A program made the translations under genes and the position numbers. Shown one piece after another: positions 1,629 through 62,133 of a stretch of 64,000 nucleotides of DNA (within the stretch, counting starts at the first letter, position 1; each line of letters begins with the position of its first letter). Under the pieces are notes generated by a model, which ran no database searches, had not been told where the DNA came from, and worked only from the letters and a program-made list of their open reading frames with translations. The stretch is from positions 64,001 to 128,000 of the forward strand of contig CAWHXP010000007.1 in the NCBI GenBank assembly GCA_963833425.1, given 5' to 3'. This DNA is from an uncultured Methanosarcinaceae archaeon. Lineage in GTDB: Archaea > Halobacteriota > Methanosarcinia > Methanosarcinales > Methanosarcinaceae.

Positions 1629-1651
1629 AGGGCTAAATTTATTTTAGCCCT
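1629..1651 (-). terminator. Hairpin terminator after the I42 inhibitor gene
   Basis: Perfect inverted repeat AGGGCTAAA-n5-TTTAGCCCT overlapping the stop codon, followed on the minus strand by a T-run. Confidence 0.55.
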
Positions 1652-1985
1652 AGAACTCCTTTGATCTACCGACCCTTATCGTAGTATCCACATGCTCCAG
1701 AACACTATCTGAAGGATCCCAAGGCCGGTGTAATCTCAGGCGGATCTCCTGGCTTCCTAGAGACCTCGCCGCGAAACGTATTACCCGCATCCCGCCGCGA
1801 CCCATCGTCATCCTGTGAGCCTCTGCGTAGGTCGACTCGATGAACTCGACTACGGAGCCTTTCGTTTCCACCTCCCACCCATAGCCTGTGGTTAGATTCT
1901 CTTCGAGATGAAATACGATCAAGTCACCAAGGTGAGCTTCAATTATGTTACCCAGGTAGTTCTGTGTGATCACAATCTCCGACAT
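1650..1985 (-). CDS. Protease inhibitor I42 (chagasin family)
   Basis: Motifs ENLTTGYGW (NPTTGYxW), GRGG and RPWD; ~110 aa; lies directly downstream of a C1A protease gene. Confidence 0.85.
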   Translation of the reverse strand: MSEIVITQNYLGNIIEAHLGDLIVFHLEENLTTGYGWEVETKGSVVEFIESTYAEAHRMTMGRGGMRVIRFAARSLGSQEIRLRLHRPWDPSDSVLEHVDTTIRVGRSKEF

Positions 1986-2009
1986 ACACACTCTCCTCTA
2001 GCGAAGCGA

Positions 2010-5005: not shown

Positions 5006-5305
5006 TCAGGAGCTTCCGCCTTCTGGAGTACCTGGTGATCTACGACGATTCAATATCTCAACGTCACCGGTATTAACGCCGCTGGGTTGCTCTTCAAATA
5101 CAGGAACTCCCTTGTCGTAATATAAAGGAGTATCGCTGGTAGTAATGTGGCCGGGCAGGTCTCTATCATAGTAGGTATGATAGTTACCGGGACCTTGATA
5201 TATGTGGTCTGCACTCGCCAATATAACTGTCAATGGTACTACTAAAAGGATTGCAAACGAAATAGTTAGTACCTTTTTCATTTTACTAGATAATTGTTTT
5301 AACAT
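5006..5305 (-). CDS. Small secreted protein with the conserved 32-aa leader; possibly truncated by a frameshift
   Basis: RBS AGGAGTG, leader MLKQLSSKMKKVLTISFAILLVVPLTVILASA; the C-terminal unit is repeated out of frame at 4897-5000. Confidence 0.65.
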   Translation of the reverse strand: MLKQLSSKMKKVLTISFAILLVVPLTVILASADHIYQGPGNYHTYYDRDLPGHITTSDTPLYYDKGVPVFEEQPSGVNTGDVEILNRRRSPGTPEGGSS

Positions 5306-5896
5306 TTATTTCACTCCTATTATAAATAGACAAAAAAATTTTTAGATTATGTTGTTGAATGTTTGCTCAATCAACAAATTGAACTCTTATCAATAAGTAA
5401 ACGACCAAAAATTGAGGTTCATCGAATAAAATACTTTTAACTTTAAACGGAATGTATATTTTATTATATATCGATTACATGTTCATGATTTTCAAAGCAC
5501 ATACACGTGATTTATTTGATCTAACTTAATTTTATTTTAGAGAATTTCGATAAACCACAATTATTGATTTGTGTATGTATATCTTGGGACAATTATTTGA
5601 AATTATTTATAAAAAATATAGTTTCTAAACAAAAAGTCTTTTCCAATTAAATATTTTAACATTGAACAACAATTAAATACAAATTATGTAATATTAAATT
5701 TAGGAATGGTACTCATTTTTTTCATTACTCACTTTTCAAAAAAATATTTTAAAATCTAACGTAAGATAATATTATTCTTATTTATATAGATGCGACTATG
5801 TCACTCACTCGCTCTGAACCGTGAAGGATCCAAATCCAGGATACATAGGCTTTAGCACACAAAACTACGCATTTATGAAACAAGGAAAAGAAACAG

Positions 5897-6892
5897 CTCT
5901 GTGGAAATCCTAAATTTGATGTTAATATTTTTATAATTTTTTGTTTATGTTGTATGTATTCACTTAATTTCAATCTCCTTCACTTGATAAATGAATTTTT
6001 TTTGCCCCTAGTGATTCTCCTAATTTTCTTTTAACTACAGAAAATATTGTCTCCACAATATTTGTTTGATTATATCTAATTTTGTCAAAGACCAGGTTCA
6101 ATTTTGTTCTATATTTTAACTTATTTTTTCCTTTTTCTATCTCTTTTACAGGTGTGATTGAACCTGATTTCATTTCTCTCTCTAATTAGGGAATGCATTT
6201 TTTCAGAATTGTATCCCTTATCCACTACATAACAATCAGACTTTCCCATCTTATTTGATTGCCTTATCAGAGCATTTTGCATGTTTGATTTCATGGTCTG
6301 TTTTTTGACTAATTTTTCATCCCAATATTACCTTTTTACTTGTGTCTATTGATATTGAAGTTCCCAGGAAGTTTCTTCGAAGTTTCCAGGTTCTTCTGGA
6401 ATAATAATAACTTGCATATAACTCGTAAATCCTGTTGCATCAATCGCTGCAATAGATACATTTCCTTCATATGAGTAAAACAACTTTAGAATCCTTGACA
6501 GAAGAAGGTTAGATAGAGAGATGGGAACCCTGGGTACAAACTTTTGAAAGGTAATGAAATGTGAAATCTTATCAAGAGCAAGTTTTTCTTTTAAATAGCT
6601 CATACGGTCAATAATTTCTACAAAATTTTGATAGTCTGTGCTATATACTCCTTCGATAAAACCAGTACAAGAAGCTGATGCCAGGTATAAACGTGTTTTG
6701 AATACTTGCAAGAATAAATCTTCGGTCTCGAAGACTAACAGTTTCAAGATTGGTATCAACAAATTTAATGTACTTATTAAACTTCAATATTGAATGTTCC
6801 TTCGTTTTTAGTGGAAAAATAAGAAAAATATTATAATTTGGCAGTTATGATACTTTAATGTAAAAGTTCAATTTAGAGCATTCTGACAGAGC
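5897..6892 (-). mobile_element. Degraded IS5-like DDE insertion sequence (family A, copy 1)
   Basis: Fragments AAIDATGFTS, YVVDKGYNSE and QTNIVETIFSVVKRK; imperfect terminal IRs GCTCTGTGGAAAT / ATTCTGACAGAGC; many frameshifts. Confidence 0.8.
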
Positions 6893-7695
6893 TAAAAATT
6901 CCATAGATTATAAACGACATTTTGCTTAATTTTCTGTTAAATCGCAAATTTCACGGCTCATTAGGTCGAAAATTTGATCTCATGAGAACCGAATTCTATA
7001 CAGTATACAAAAATTGTGTTTCAAATTTACACTAAATTCGCTACGTTAATTTTATCGCAGTGTACTGAAAGGTCTGTAAAATCACAAGTGTCTAGAAATT
7101 GTTAAATCGAAAATCTTACTCAGAAGAAAGATTAAATAAAATAATTAGAAATTTGACTTCGCATTTACAGTAAATTTGCGGTGCTGTTCATTTTTTGCAA
7201 GAAAAACCTTACTTAGAATCTTGATAAGCCATTAATTTTTCAGGAGTCATATATTTTCATAAGTTTAGGATGAAATTTATGTGTTTACAGAAAATCTATA
7301 GTAATTATTAAGAATTGTTAACTTATGGTAATAATTGATTCTTATATTTAATTAATGATATATATTCATAATTAACATTTCTCAATATATTATATCTTTT
7401 GGATATCAATAATGTGATAATACAATCTGAAAGAATTCCTATCGGCATATCTGCTGATTTAACTATTTAATGATATATAGGTCTTTTAAAAATGAAGATT
7501 AACTAGCTGTTACAATACCAGTCTGTTAACAGGTTTGTGAAATACTAGTTAGTTAAATAATATTTCCACAGTGTATCGCCGATGGAAAGTGCATTGAAAA
7601 AGTAACAGTATGAAAAGTACATCCTAAAATGCATCATATCAGTTGTATCACATAAAAAGTGTATCAGAGTAAACAAAAATCAGGAGAATAAACCG

Positions 7696-8001
7696 GTGAA
7701 AAGACAAACAATTTCCAAAATAAGTAAAACAATAGGTGTTTTACTAGCTGTCTTCCTTGTAGTAACATTGACAGCAGTGGCAGCGAGTGCAAATTGTGGC
7801 GGTCATGGTGGCCATGGAGGTTGCGGAGGATGCGGAAGCAGTGGATGCGGAAGCAGTGGATGCGGAAGCAGTGGAGGATGCGGCAGCTGTGGAGGATGCG
7901 GAAGCAGTGGAGGATGTGGCGGCTGTGCACTGCCACCGATGCCACCGATGCCCATGTTTTGTGGCAGCGGCTGTGGATGTGGCAGCGGCTGTGGTTGTTA
8001 A
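7696..8001 (+). CDS. Secreted Cys/Gly-rich small protein (32-aa leader + 69-aa core with 15 Cys)
   Basis: RBS CAGGAGA, GTG start, signal peptide ending ASA, then CGG/CGSSG repeats, PPMPPMPM and CGSGCGCGSGCGC. Confidence 0.75.
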   Translation: MKRQTISKISKTIGVLLAVFLVVTLTAVAASANCGGHGGHGGCGGCGSSGCGSSGCGSSGGCGSCGGCGSSGGCGGCALPPMPPMPMFCGSGCGCGSGCGC

Positions 8002-8310
8002 TATCAAAATCTAATTACAGTAAATGGTAAAAATGAACACTTAAAAAATTATGAATTTAAACAATAGTACGTTCTGGATTTTTCCGCTCCCACTCTTTCT
8101 TCACCCATCTATATAATATCGTTAATATCGTAGGAAGCAACTCAGAAACGATGGAGATTTACAATTTATTATTAAGATCGCTGAAGCAATTTTATTGAAT
8201 AATTCTACGTGAATCTGAAACAATTCAGAAATGCATCTCAATTTTTCAAGTGGTCATTATTGAAAGTTTGAATCAGATACAGAGAATTATGGAAATTTAG
8301 CATCGAAATA

Positions 8311-8401
8311 AGAAGATTTCGATAAAATCCTGATTTTTACGAGTCATTTATATAATATTTATAAGCATATGACAAAATCAAGGGGTTTATCGGAATCCTC
8401 T
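8311..8401. mobile_element. ~90-bp MITE with IS5-type terminal IRs
   Basis: AGAAGATTTCGATAAAATCC ... GGGGTTTATCGGAATCCTCT; ends resemble the TIRs of the IS at 21243-22378. Confidence 0.6.
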
Positions 8402-8456: not shown

Positions 8457-10679
8457 TCAAACTTTTAATCTTTGATGTATGTTAGGTAGAAATTTATCAA
8501 AATATTTAGTCACTAAACAGGATTCTGTGCATTTCCTGCATCTAATGCACTTTTCGCTTACATATATTCTTCGTTCAATTAGAGAAACTGCACCCATAGG
8601 GCATGCTTTTATACAAATCCCACAGCCTGTACAGTGGATAAATCTTATTAATTGCTTTGTGACATCTTTAAAAAGGCTAATCGCTTTTTCTTTTGTTTCA
8701 GAGCTCACTAGCAGATTTCCACTTGAAAAAAACTTTACAGTCCCTATACCAGTTTTGACAAGCAGAATACCCATTTCTTCCATATAAACCGTATTTCCAA
8801 GTACATTTATGCAACCTGTAATTTCTTTTTCCCTGATACCTCGTACTTCTGCTTCTATTGAGAAACCTCCAGCCCTGCAGGGGGAAATTCCTCCCACGAC
8901 TTCAATTTCAAAATTTTCAAAATTTTCTTTAGCAAGAATAGAAATCCCAAGTTCTTCTGCCAGTCTGCACATTTTCGGAGGCAACTCCTTCCAGCGCCAG
9001 AATCCATATTCTATGAACTTTTCAGAAAGTCCCCGGATTTTTGCCCACTCCAACAGGAAAGAATTCCATTTCTCATGCATTTCAGGGTGTAGCTCTTTTA
9101 CTCTGGAGTATTCGGCAGCAAGGGCAGACGGGCAAAGCCAGCATCCTATTCTTTCAAAACCAAGATCATAGAGAGGATTGTATGGGAGTCCTCTCCAGTA
9201 AATATATAGCCATACTTCGAGAGCCTTCCAGTTTCTTATGGGGAAGATATTGAGCTGGGAAGGTACAAAGGGATTTTTCTCACTAGCCGCAACTCTCGCT
9301 CTTGAGAAGGATTCATGTTTTCTCTTACCATCGATTGTCAGATAAGCTACACCATTATCTATTTTTCTATCAGGAGAGTTGGAGATGCCTTTTCCTACAT
9401 CCAAGTTACCTGCAGATGACAGTTTACATACTTTGCAGCACCAACGAAAATCTTTAGCAGGAGGCCCAAATTTCCTAATTTGATCCCAGAAAGAAGAGCC
9501 TGCATTAATTTCTTCAAGTGGAATTTCCATCTTCTGGCAAGAAATTCTAACAAATTCGACAGTTTCAGGAAACTCGATTCCGGTATTGAGAAAGAAAGCC
9601 TTGAGTTCCCTATGTTTGAGGGCAGCTCGGGCCAGATCCATACTTACAAGGCTGTCTTTTCCGCCACTGAAAGAGACATAAATAGGAAGGTCAATGTTTT
9701 CGTTGCTGGAAACAATCCCACGAATTGTATTGATGGCGTTTTTGCCAAGAACTTGAAGATGCTTTTTGTTTGCCTCTATACATGCACTAAGATCCGGAGT
9801 TTCTGGATGAAGGAATGCCTTACTACTATCAATTCTCCTGATTCTGAGGACTTTCGCTCCGGCATCTGTTGAGGATATAAATCTATTTTGAACTTCATTT
9901 TCAGCCAGGTTTTTCAGCTTTGAAAAGTCTTCTCCGTTAATATAAGAAACTCCATATCCCGTCAGTTTGCCTGCAGTCACAAGGACGAAATCTCCCTTCT
10001 TTATGGTATCCATAAAGAATTGAACAAGCTCTATTGTAACTTTTTTCCCATTAAAATGCCTGTTATTTTTCTTAAGTTCAACTCTTCTGCTTTTCGCGTA
10101 CATCAGGAGAATTTTTGCTCCCTGAATGGAAGGTTCGAAACTGTAGCTCCCTTTGGGAATCTCAAAACGGAGAATTCCAAATATGAAGCCATCAACGAGT
10201 ACTTCATCTGTTTTATCTTCACCAGGTATTTTATTAAGGAGTATTAACCTGTCATCTAGAGGATTGCAGCCAAAAGTTGAGGAAAGTTGCCTGTTAATAA
10301 TTTCTTTCTCATAAGGTGAACAGAAACGGATATCTGCAGGCTGGGAAAGAGGTATAAATTGTCCATCGTTTCCACATCTTCCGCACTCTTTTCCAATCAA
10401 AGGCAGGTTGCATTTTTTACACCAGAAAATATGGCTATCTTCATACTCGAAACGCTGAAAATTTTGTTTTTTCGGAAAATTCGAATTTATATTTTTTTTC
10501 GCGCTAGAGATCTTTTTGGTAGAATCCTTTCCACTAAAATCTCGGGATTTGTCTACAGTGAGATTTTCATCTGTATGAAAATCTTTTTTTCCCGGCTTAA
10601 TATATATTTTTCCATTAAGTTTGTTTCTATTTTGCTTATTCGGTTCCGAATCCCGAATTTTTTCATTTTTCTGCTGCAT
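8457..10679 (-). CDS. Phosphoadenosine phosphosulfate reductase-domain protein with N-terminal Cys cluster, PUA-like region and C-terminal 4Fe-4S dicluster
   Basis: SFSGGKDS PP-loop, RWCCKVCK, ERIGCWLCP, CTGCGICIKACP and CIRCRKCTESC. Confidence 0.88.
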   Translation of the reverse strand: MQQKNEKIRDSEPNKQNRNKLNGKIYIKPGKKDFHTDENLTVDKSRDFSGKDSTKKISSAKKNINSNFPKKQNFQRFEYEDSHIFWCKKCNLPLIGKECGRCGNDGQFIPLSQPADIRFCSPYEKEIINRQLSSTFGCNPLDDRLILLNKIPGEDKTDEVLVDGFIFGILRFEIPKGSYSFEPSIQGAKILLMYAKSRRVELKKNNRHFNGKKVTIELVQFFMDTIKKGDFVLVTAGKLTGYGVSYINGEDFSKLKNLAENEVQNRFISSTDAGAKVLRIRRIDSSKAFLHPETPDLSACIEANKKHLQVLGKNAINTIRGIVSSNENIDLPIYVSFSGGKDSLVSMDLARAALKHRELKAFFLNTGIEFPETVEFVRISCQKMEIPLEEINAGSSFWDQIRKFGPPAKDFRWCCKVCKLSSAGNLDVGKGISNSPDRKIDNGVAYLTIDGKRKHESFSRARVAASEKNPFVPSQLNIFPIRNWKALEVWLYIYWRGLPYNPLYDLGFERIGCWLCPSALAAEYSRVKELHPEMHEKWNSFLLEWAKIRGLSEKFIEYGFWRWKELPPKMCRLAEELGISILAKENFENFEIEVVGGISPCRAGGFSIEAEVRGIREKEITGCINVLGNTVYMEEMGILLVKTGIGTVKFFSSGNLLVSSETKEKAISLFKDVTKQLIRFIHCTGCGICIKACPMGAVSLIERRIYVSEKCIRCRKCTESCLVTKYFDKFLPNIHQRLKV

Positions 10680-58375: not shown

Positions 58376-59278
58376 ATGGGGAAACAATTTTTTGGAAGAA
58401 TAAAAACTACATTGACCATCTTGATGGCGATATCTTTCATAATGCCACTGACAGTTCTATCAGTAAGTGCCGATCCAAGTGATGCATTTGGAGATGGAAA
58501 TGGAAGCTGCTGCCCCGGAAACTGTGGCCCTGAAGATTTTGGCCCTGGAAACTGTGGCCTTGGAAACTGTGGCCTTGGAAACTGTGGTCCCGGAAACTGT
58601 GCCCCTGGGAACTTTGGACCTGGATACTTTGGCCCCGGAAACTGTGGACCTGGAAACTGTGGACCTGGGAACTTTGGACCTGGATACTTTGGCCCTGGAA
58701 ACTGTGGACCTGGGAACATTGGCCCTGGGAACATTGGAGCCGGAAATATAGGACCTGGGAACATTGGATATGAAAATATTGGAGCTGGGAACATTGGAGC
58801 TGGGAACATTGGAGCTGAAAATATTGGAGCTGAAAATTTAGGAGCTGGAAATTTAGGAGCTGGAAATTTAGGAGCTAGAAATGTCGGAGAAGGAAATGTT
58901 GGGAACGGAAATACTGGAGATGGAAATGTTGGAACTGGAAATGTAGGAGCTGGGAATATTGGAGTTGGAAACGTTGGATATGGAAATGTTGGAGCTGGAA
59001 ACATCGGAGCTTGGAACATTGGAGCTCGAAATATGGGAGATGGAATAGTGGGAGATGGAATAGTTGGAGCCGGAAACATCGGAGCTCGAAATATAGGAGC
59101 TGGAAGATTTGGAGATGGAAACTTCGAACAAGGAAGTTATGGGCCCGATGAACATTTTATACCTAGGAGCCACAAGCACGTTATATCCAGGGGTCACAAA
59201 CATAAGTCAAAAGTTCATGGCCATAAATCAAAAGGTCATGGGCATAAAACAAAGGACCACGGTCATTACAGATATTAA
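58376..59278 (+). CDS. Secreted pentapeptide-repeat (GxGNx) protein with His/Lys-rich tail
   Basis: RBS AGGAGAG, 32-aa leader ending VSA, ~41 five-residue units (15-bp DNA repeats), C-terminal tail with 11 His. Confidence 0.85.
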   Translation: MGKQFFGRIKTTLTILMAISFIMPLTVLSVSADPSDAFGDGNGSCCPGNCGPEDFGPGNCGLGNCGLGNCGPGNCAPGNFGPGYFGPGNCGPGNCGPGNFGPGYFGPGNCGPGNIGPGNIGAGNIGPGNIGYENIGAGNIGAGNIGAENIGAENLGAGNLGAGNLGARNVGEGNVGNGNTGDGNVGTGNVGAGNIGVGNVGYGNVGAGNIGAWNIGARNMGDGIVGDGIVGAGNIGARNIGAGRFGDGNFEQGSYGPDEHFIPRSHKHVISRGHKHKSKVHGHKSKGHGHKTKDHGHYRY

Positions 59279-61140: not shown

Positions 61141-62133
61141 ATGTCTCTATTTGACCCATTCCTCATATCAAAGGCACTCTGGCAGATTGGAGTCCGAAAA
61201 CGTCCTTTTGTTCTTTCGCACGCTGTAAATGCCCACTGCAATATGAGCTGCAGTTTTTGCGAGCACTGGAAAAAAGGAGGGTATGAACCTACAAAGGAAG
61301 AGGTTTTTAGGCTATTAGATGATGCAAAAAAATTTGGGATAGGGGTTTACAATGCCTGGACCGTGGAACCTCTTCTCCGAAAAGACCTCCCCAAGATTAT
61401 GGCTCACGTCAAAGAGCTTGGGATGATAACTTCAATGGTAACAAACGGAAAGCTGCTCTGCGAAAGAGCTGAAGAGCTTGGAGATGTGGATTATCTTTCT
61501 GTTTCCGTGGATGGAATAAAGAGCTATAAAGAAATCCGGCAGACGGATTTCGGAACATTGCTAAAAGGAATAAAAAAAGCCATTAAATTTAGAAAACTTC
61601 AGAACCAGAAAAATCCTATCCTAATGAATTGTGTACTTATGGGGAAAAATCTTGAAGACATTGAGGCTCTTATTTTTCTTGCAAAGGAGCTGGGACTAAA
61701 AATTTCTTTTGAGCCTATCCACAAGTTCCCAGGCATCAGTGAAGTCGTTTGGAAAAATATCGGAATTAGTGATATCAAAAAGTTCCGCAGCACCGTTGAC
61801 CGCATAATAGAACTTAAAGAACAAGATTATCCTATCATTAATTCCAAAACCTACCTTCGAATGGTTAGAGAAGGAAAAATGGACTGTAAATGCAGAGCCA
61901 GCGGTTTTATTATGGATGTGACTCATGACTGTACTGTTGAAACATGTCGCGTGCAAAACGAGCCTCTTGGAAATGTGATGTTGGATGGCTTTGAGAGTGT
62001 ATGGAAAAACTCGGAAGAGCGTAAAAGCAAAATTGTACAAAATTGTAAAGGTTGTCTTTTTTTTGGATATGTGGAAAATAGCTTGATGCAGAGCCTCAAT
62101 CCCGAAGTTTTGATGAATTACGAGTGGATTTGA
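61141..62133 (+). CDS. Radical SAM protein with C-terminal SPASM/twitch-like Cys region
   Basis: CNMSCSFC, EPLLR, VTNG, SVSVDG, then CRAS...TCRV...LGNV...CKGC. Confidence 0.9.
   Translation: MSLFDPFLISKALWQIGVRKRPFVLSHAVNAHCNMSCSFCEHWKKGGYEPTKEEVFRLLDDAKKFGIGVYNAWTVEPLLRKDLPKIMAHVKELGMITSMVTNGKLLCERAEELGDVDYLSVSVDGIKSYKEIRQTDFGTLLKGIKKAIKFRKLQNQKNPILMNCVLMGKNLEDIEALIFLAKELGLKISFEPIHKFPGISEVVWKNIGISDIKKFRSTVDRIIELKEQDYPIINSKTYLRMVREGKMDCKCRASGFIMDVTHDCTVETCRVQNEPLGNVMLDGFESVWKNSEERKSKIVQNCKGCLFFGYVENSLMQSLNPEVLMNYEWI

Follow-up and report, generated by a model that had tools for sequence, protein, structure and literature searches.

A predicted exported, repeat-built, metallothionein-like peptide and its signal-peptide family in an uncultured Methanosarcina

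A stretch of 64,000 nucleotides (hereafter the window) from an uncultured Methanosarcinaceae archaeon (assembly GCA_963833425.1, contig CAWHXP010000007.1, positions 64,001 to 128,000 of the forward strand) carries a small open reading frame (ORF) at 7696..8001 whose product ends in a 69-residue tail with 15 cysteines. The locus raises two questions: whether such a repeat-rich frame is a gene, and what a peptide of this kind would do in a methanogen. A first-pass annotation, made from the letters alone, had described it as a secreted metallothionein- or keratin-associated-protein-like peptide and proposed an extracellular chelator, a cross-linkable matrix peptide or an orphan precursor of a peptide made on ribosomes and modified after translation (RiPP). 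Here the ORF is read as the gene of a predicted exported, repeat-built, metallothionein-like peptide within an undescribed signal-peptide family, a subgroup of which adds a shared 450-nt upstream block.

The gene, its repeats and its orthologs

Coordinates, frame and sequence of the ORF agree with those given in the first-pass annotation. Its parts, and the elements in front of it, were assigned as follows.

7225..7673, plus strand: conserved non-coding block of about 450 nt, recurring 5' of Cys/Gly-rich family genes
7682..7686, plus strand: ribosome-binding site AGGAG, 9 nt 5' of GTG, read from the sequence
7696..8001, plus strand: coding sequence with GTG start, 101 codons, then TAA
7696..7791, plus strand: predicted Sec-type signal peptide or signal anchor of 32 residues, with four Lys/Arg, an 18-residue hydrophobic core and an ASA end
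7792..7926, plus strand: N-terminal Cys/Gly/Ser domain of 45 residues with 10 Cys and 2 His, encoded by 15/18-bp tandem units
7927..7959, plus strand: Pro/Met linker ALPPMPPMPMF, encoded by a 9-bp repeat
7960..7998, plus strand: C-terminal Cys/Gly domain CGSGCGCGSGCGC with 5 Cys, the last residue being Cys

The tail consists of 29 Gly, 15 Cys, 11 Ser, 5 Pro, 3 Met and 2 His, with one each of Asn, Ala, Leu and Phe. Cysteine accounts for 22% of it (15/69), ten residues standing before the linker and five behind it, in CxxC, Cx4C and Cx3CxC words; nothing beyond the two His is charged, and the single Phe is the only aromatic residue, with no Trp or Tyr. The counts, the 10 + 5 split by the linker and the lack of charge in the mature core are as they had been described. 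The microrepeats noted earlier were recovered by Tandem Repeats Finder with periods of 9, 15 and 18. The period of 15 in the tail has the unit GGATGCGGAAGCAGT in 5.2 copies with 86% matches; further readings are period 18 at 7825-7916 (18/36-bp readings of the 15-bp array), period 9 at 7931-7952 under the linker and period 18 at 7960-7998 under the C-terminal Cys block. The tail has a G+C content of 61.8%; that of the window is 35.0% and that of the flanks 26-28%. The remaining reading frames over the repeat region are likewise open, in the window and in an ortholog; this is a consequence of the GGN/TGY composition and speaks neither for nor against the gene.

The comparison set comprised 59 species-level genomes of the genus, including the organism's own genome (G000, 4.07 Mb, 80% complete). 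A profile built from the peptide and the relatives found first reached E values below 1e-30 in four of them: the own genome, G019, G065 and G067. The GTG start and the order of parts (signal, Cys/Gly domain, linker, and a C-terminal Cys/Gly block ending in Cys) are identical in all four, and the metagenome protein P0001 is a fifth example of the same plan. Homologs preserving the frame, whose absence would have spoken against the peptide according to the first-pass annotation, were found in G019, G065, G067 and P0001. The linker reads (W)LDPIxPMPPMPF in four orthologs, against ALPPMPPMPMF in the window peptide, and the C-terminal block reads CGGCGGCGGNxGCxxC in the orthologs. The N-terminal Cys domain varies by whole repeat units: GGSNGCGC is present three times in G067 and about once in G019, and the window peptide uses a different, GCGSS-type unit. 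Because the relative P0006 keeps the linker (WLAALPPMDPIPF / CGCWLAALPPMDPIPFCGGG) inside a Gly/Trp-type tail, the linker is regarded as a conserved module; judged by these alignments, it is the best-conserved part of the mature peptide and more than a spacer.

Non-synonymous differences per site (pN) were fewer than synonymous ones (pS) in all nine pairwise comparisons of alignable blocks, with small counts, which is the outcome of the dN/dS check proposed earlier. The lowest pS values belonged to the linker and C-terminal block (0.11-0.16), and the signal peptide of more distant pairs gave 0.35-0.52. Variation in repeat number, a second check of the same kind, was seen among the orthologs and also in an allele from peat RNA libraries. 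These libraries were represented by assembled contigs of four metatranscriptome runs, which show presence and not transcription, ends or levels. Two contigs, X8 (407 nt, on 7702-7994) and X9 (243 nt), cover the ORF at about 94% likeness; their allele misses one 18-nt unit at 7858 and has GGA inserted at 7974, both in frame. Deeper contigs cover 7510-7794 and then diverge into an Arg/Gly-rich tail, and represent a paralog with the same block and signal. The shares of window words in 18 sequencing runs were all small (0.13 or less).

A five-sequence profile searched with HMMER against 1.84 billion representative proteins gave 80 matches at E <=0.001, only one of which, P0001, was full-length; the others were small proteins that aligned by their signal peptides, starting at residue 1. 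A collection of 15 billion proteins contained neither the exact window protein nor two of its three orthologs, a word-indexed protein search gave two matches only, and the ESM Atlas gave a top score of 0.76 and no lead. The window protein matched no Pfam family at E up to 1 and no NCBIfam model, and a PDB sequence search returned only linker-like low-complexity chains.

The gene goes beyond chance because frame, GTG start and domain order recur in three genomes and one metagenome protein, and because pN is below pS and the length changes in the RNA-library contigs (18 nt and 3 nt) are in frame. On this comparison it is real and conserved, but narrowly. The opposite view would be that of a drifting, nearly functionless ORF, in which a duplicated promoter-plus-signal cassette stands before repeat DNA that is open by chance. 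The open frames over the repeat region, the several family copies cut by stops and the absence of the exact protein from the 15-billion-protein collection would fit such a view. Against it stand the domain order, linker and C-terminal Cys block kept in five sequences of different species-level genomes, pN below pS, the in-frame insertions and deletions, and the retained start codon and ribosome-binding site. Drift of this sort was consequently considered very improbable.

The export signal and the family that carries it

The first 32 residues have the n-h-c build of a Sec signal (MKRQTISKISKT / IGVLLAVFLVVTLTAVAA / SA), with ASA directly before Asn33: a basic n-region is followed by a hydrophobic h-region within the usual 15-20 residues and by small residues at -3 and -1. 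The secreted N-terminus proposed earlier is thus supported as a predicted export signal, which in the own genome also precedes a cupredoxin, a cytochrome-b5-like protein and esterases. Since this N-terminus also heads globular proteins with Pfam domains, it is an ordinary export signal; to judge from the proteins that carry it, it is generic to the organism and not the private leader of a maturase. AlphaFold2, run with a five-row alignment, predicted a helix at residues 3-33 with a confidence score (pLDDT) of up to 83, and residues 31-101 stayed below 50. By this prediction the tail does not fold on its own, as would be the case for a thiol peptide in its apo form.

The signal belongs to a large family. 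With the window protein as query, tblastn found 56 places in the own genome, and a profile of 13 own-genome N-termini found 67 ORF segments at E <=0.001, seeds included; this family count therefore rests on a profile containing its own seeds, one of which is the window ORF (E 2.8e-14). The N-terminus common to all members is close to MLKQSSSKMKKVLAILLAVLFVVSLTAVAASA. The tails behind it are unrelated and mostly short (median 74 residues). In 27 of 71 tail matches Gly outnumbers every other residue, and among the tail types are GWGGYGG runs, HGHGHG, HHHHK, GDHH repeats, NG repeats and Cys/Gly runs. No other member in the own genome is as rich in Cys as the window peptide. Several copies are interrupted by stops. 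The family is expanded in five genomes (23-47 matches at E <=1e-5 in G000, G019, G064, G065 and G067), and the other 54 genomes have at most 11 matches each. Histidine is frequent just behind the predicted cleavage site, at 10.0% of the first 10 residues of 65 tails versus 3.8% further on and 2.0% in long ORFs; it occurs within the first 10 residues of 32 of the 65 tails and is the first tail residue in nine of them.

Pfam domains above cut-off were present in four of 60 scanned members of at least 45 residues: a cupredoxin, a cytochrome-b5-like domain, a pentapeptide-repeat protein and a BD-FAE esterase. The cupredoxin is a 121-residue protein at G000:C8:439511-439876 on the plus strand (Copper-bind, E 6.9e-11); its domain and family signal would make it a blue-copper protein exported by a strict anaerobe. 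Two further members lie in the window.

5006..5305, minus strand: family member of 99 residues with no Cys in the tail, found by the signal-peptide profile
58376-59278, plus strand: family member of 300 residues with Pentapeptide_2 repeats (PF01469, E 4e-29), found by the signal-peptide profile and Pfam

A radical-SAM ORF at about 61141-62130 lies some 1.9 kb downstream of the second of these. Full-text literature searches returned no description of the family. Term searches in a Methanosarcina mazei small-protein Ribo-seq paper and in a Methanosarcina barkeri pyrite proteome paper, the supplements of which may list homologs, gave no trace of it either. We regard the window peptide as the thiol-rich extreme of a lineage-specific exported family, the tails of which combine Gly with ligand or aromatic residues (His, Cys, Trp, Tyr).

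Hypervariable tails behind a conserved signal and upstream block, a family expanded in few genomes and small proteins with a median tail of 74 residues could also be expected of exported antimicrobial or competition peptides, in which fast-changing tails would reflect an arms race, as in Gly- or Cys-rich antimicrobial peptides known from plants and animals. The window peptide, however, lacks both charge and amphipathic character, genes for immunity or transport are not linked to it, and Pfam and NCBIfam gave no match to a defence or bacteriocin family, with no search made of the PADLOC library. An antimicrobial role was given the least credence among the explanations considered.

The generic character of the signal also bears on the proposal of a RiPP, in which the N-terminus would serve as leader and the core would be modified by a maturase encoded elsewhere, either to azoles of the microcin B17 kind or to thioethers by a radical-SAM/SPASM enzyme of the kind acting on CrpA. 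The core is Gly/Ser/Cys-rich as in microcin B17 and other thiazole/oxazole precursors, a composition taken by azole-forming enzymes; unlike those systems, the locus showed no cyclodehydratase partner or dehydrogenase, no NCBIfam bacteriocin model was matched and synteny is not conserved, the flanks varying between orthologs. The search for YcaO and radical-SAM maturases suggested by the first-pass annotation did not favour its RiPP option. The only YcaO gene of the genome (contig C2) is followed by that of TfuA, a pair known for the thioamidation of methyl-CoM reductase. No cyclodehydratase, dehydrogenase or SPASM radical-SAM gene was found within 10 kb or elsewhere on the 356-kb contig C7, and none of the eight SPASM matches in the genome lies on that contig. 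The best SagB-type dehydrogenase scored 24.1 bits against a cut-off of 78.4, and the best match to TIGR04463, the radical-SAM model for CrpC-type genes, scored 70 bits against 525. Another family member does have a radical-SAM gene (C8:235544-236491) at a distance of about 0.9 kb; by our estimate, one such neighbour pair would arise by chance among 67 family ORFs and eight SPASM genes. The genome being 80% complete also counts on the side of a RiPP.

A parallel for a modified peptide comes from another methanogen. CrpA and CrpB of Methanococcus voltae share a 47-residue N-terminus and then diverge, as the family here does, and are cross-linked by CrpC at C-X-X-Q/D words; CrpA has ten 17-residue repeats and was picked by a screen for proteins of at least 100 residues (PMC13692751). 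The likeness extends to Cys-rich repeats in a methanogen, a common N-terminus with a divergent rest and a suspected metal role. The window locus differs in that no CrpC-type gene reached the cut-off, the N-terminus is a hydrophobic export signal as found on ordinary globular exoproteins, the protein is much smaller, and the core contains neither Asp nor Gln and hence no C-X-X-Q/D word. Taken with these points, modification of the peptide was judged to be quite unlikely.

The upstream block

The block at 7225..7673 recurs in 15 copies with 77-82% identity in six of the 59 genomes (G000, one; G019, four; G055, one; G064, one; G065, three; G067, five). All of the 12 copies fetched directly precede the start of a signal-peptide gene; the tails encoded there contain 31-54% Gly and 2-15 Cys, with at least seven Cys in 10 of the 12. 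AGGAG or GGGAG is kept at the ribosome-binding site in 12 of 12 aligned copies, and the block is conserved better than the coding tails behind it. Several GTATATC-like words and TATA-like stretches occur in it. Comparing 7300-8200 with Rfam yielded no match close to a gathering score, and the predicted RNA structure of the block had a z value of -0.26 against shuffled controls, with covariation in one of 35 predicted pairs. The block is probably a promoter with a long leader, or else may be the binding array of a regulator.

Two candidates within the block were rejected. A small ORF of 28-30 codons on the minus strand is open in all 12 copies, with a frame shift in the window copy, and the block contains no ORF whose frame is kept. 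A putative NikR operator (CTGTTAC..TTAACAG near 7507-7532) is present in the window and is not kept in the other 11 copies; the consensus used for it, GTGTTAC-N13/14-GTAACAC, is delta-proteobacterial (PMC545781). A separate element at 8312-8401, with inverted arms around a TATA-like core, was observed between the peptide gene and the 3' end of the neighbouring PAPS-reductase-like gene. It has a high summed depth of RNA-library contigs in all four runs, and similar sequence is found at the G067 and G064 loci.

Metal binding, matrix and genomic surroundings

Metallothioneins are by working definition small cytosolic proteins with 15-30% Cys in CxC/CxxC words, few aromatics and metal-thiolate clusters. 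The window peptide has the low mass, the Cys content and words and the near-absence of aromatics, and differs in location, carrying a predicted signal peptide common to exported globular proteins. The first-pass comparison with metallothioneins was therefore sustained for the make-up and the two-domain Cys layout and not for family membership: no metallothionein model of Pfam (such as PF00131, PF01439 and PF02069) or of NCBIfam was matched at E up to 1. On present sequence grounds the peptide is metallothionein-like by composition and layout, and by sequence and location it is in no metallothionein family. Plant metallothioneins of types 1 and 2 are alike in small size, with 22% Cys in the window peptide, CxC/CxxC words, two domains around a Cys-free linker, few aromatics and no fold in the apo form, and the window peptide is distinguished from them by its predicted export signal, a Pro/Met linker of about 11 residues and Gly/Ser repeats of variable number. 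Exported bacterial metal "sponge" or storage proteins, namely SilE/PcoE and Csp1 of methanotrophs, resemble it in the proposed extracytoplasmic holding of metals by Met/His or Cys. These proteins are helical when loaded and are encoded in metal-resistance or copper operons, whereas the window gene stands alone and has no relation to them in sequence or fold.

We tentatively prefer to read the peptide as a metal-binding, metallothionein-like thiol peptide that is exported, a function suggested by composition and held at somewhat less than an even chance. A general Sec-type signal would send the small protein out of the cytoplasm, and the 69-residue tail would be released behind ASA or stay tethered by the uncleaved signal helix; either way it would come to lie between membrane and surface layer (S-layer) or in the matrix of the cell. 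The 15 thiols would remain free in the reduced, sulfidic surroundings of a methanogen, and together with the two His close to the new N-terminus and the linker Met could bind soft metals (Zn, Ni, Co, Cu(I), Fe(II), Cd) or small metal-sulfide clusters. The peptide might then act at the cell surface in the manner of a metallothionein, buffering trace metals, retaining them or passing them on. Its capacity would be tuned as 15/18-bp repeat units are gained and lost, and the conserved Pro/Met linker would be a possible recognition site for another component. Methanogens have a high demand for Ni and encounter it as sulfide minerals (PMC10617489), and a set of Cys-rich proteins of Methanococcus voltae increases on pyrite and is thought to bind metals (PMC13692751).

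The surroundings of family genes give a mixed picture. The 67 family ORFs have 138 ORFs within 3 kb, among which no single partner recurs throughout; proteins of TPR and PKD surface type are seen repeatedly. Three of the eight genes for CbiM, a component of Ni/Co uptake, have a family ORF within 1.5 kb, and on contig C10 two family ORFs lie between the NikR gene and the CbiMQO operon (G000:C10:87498-93783), with CorA 0.4 kb from two His-rich members. The His-repeat tails, the His near the cleavage site and this proximity to Ni/Co genes point weakly to metal ligands. Contig C10 (133 kb) itself holds 11 of the 67 family ORFs, four of the eight CbiM genes, NikR, CorA, a FeoB piece, Cdc6/ORC, integrases and IS240 transposases, and may be a variable island rich in metal-uptake genes.

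Several observations weigh against the metal-binding reading. The Ni/Co-linked ORFs are other members of the family, and the window gene has no such neighbours. The CbiM linkage has P = 0.013 in a uniform shuffle and P = 0.12 in a shuffle within contigs, the latter because C10 is crowded with both kinds of gene. The orthologs have CxC pairs and CxxCxxC words whose spacing differs from that of the window peptide; without a conserved Cys spacing, a defined cluster site is unlikely. The absence of any metallothionein family match belongs here as well, and so do the flanks, which differ between orthologs, with ilvD as downstream neighbour in G019 and G067. Many tails in the family have no Cys or His and are rich in Gly/Trp/Tyr, Lys or Asn. 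Cleavage of predicted signal peptides is uncertain in the genus: among 31 measured Methanosarcina N-termini, a predicted signal was lost only in the S-layer protein (PMC4350412), so that the peptide may stay tethered to the membrane.

The main rival to metal binding is a matrix protein, that is, a structural or adhesive peptide of the envelope or of Methanosarcina aggregates in which Cys would provide cross-links, either as disulfides upon exposure to O2 or as metal bridges. Such a role suits the Gly/Trp/Tyr members at least as well, which is a further point against metal binding: the tails in which Gly is commonest (27 of 71) often contain Trp or Tyr and lack Cys or His, Cys density and not spacing is kept among the orthologs, and TPR/PKD surface-type proteins recur nearby. 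Paralogs also give sub-threshold matches to the plant glycine-rich proteins (PF07172, E 0.002-0.005; two paralogs with 17.9 and 19.3 bits against a cut-off of 30), to the keratin type II head and to "New_glue"; these reflect composition only, and the window peptide itself has none. The comparison with plant glycine-rich proteins or high-glycine keratin-associated proteins, in which a signal precedes a Gly-rich low-complexity tail with some Cys, Tyr or Trp, likewise stays at the level of composition, and the host here is an archaeon of anoxic habitats. By established chemistry, disulfides would be unlikely to form or last in the reduced habitat of a methanogen, and the window peptide, with its single Phe and no Trp or Tyr, offers no aromatic "stickers". 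A matrix role is therefore regarded as possible but doubtful for the window peptide.

The closer neighbours of the window gene are a convergent gene for a PAPS-reductase-like protein of 740 residues, short unassignable ORFs and another family member. The 740-residue protein (8457-10679, minus strand) is conserved; it begins with a Cys4 stretch, carries a PAPS-reductase domain and has a 2x[4Fe-4S] domain at the C-terminus, and it matches the NCBIfam equivalog NF010366 "hypothetical protein" with 1090 bits. At 5782-6762 (minus strand), four short overlapping ORFs of 63, 67, 57 and 138 residues resemble fragments of one disrupted gene; three of them were compared with Pfam, without a match. A 113-residue ORF at 1650-1991 (minus strand) has a chagasin-family peptidase-inhibitor I42 domain (PF09394, E 5.8e-15).

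Metal binding, if correct, could be part of a wider system. In a metallophore-like regulon, unmodified exported tails rich in thiols, His and Met would be in competition with humic matter and sulfide for Ni, Co, Fe or Zn at the cell surface and pass these metals to uptake systems such as NikMNQO/CbiMNQO; the 450-nt leader would act as a metal or redox switch of the Cys/Gly-rich subgroup, the linker as a docking site, and repeat slippage would tune capacity. This extension is unlikely, and is put forward as a speculation.

What is at stake is the metal supply of methanogens, which need unusually much Ni, Co and Fe, metals that are locked as sulfides or bound to organic matter (PMC10617489). With a metallothionein-like peptide, and a family of exported Gly/His/Cys-rich peptides that has Ni/Co uptake genes among its neighbours, the locus is a candidate for a metal route outside the cell. 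If true, it would represent a new protein-based route of extracellular metal capture or buffering, by an exported metallothionein-like peptide and its family of about 67 members, in an uncultured Methanosarcina of bogs and peat (a habitat taken from a relative) that contributes to methane emission. Should the metal reading be wrong, the family would still be a clear case of a conserved cassette of promoter and signal peptide placed before tails that evolve by repeat slippage.

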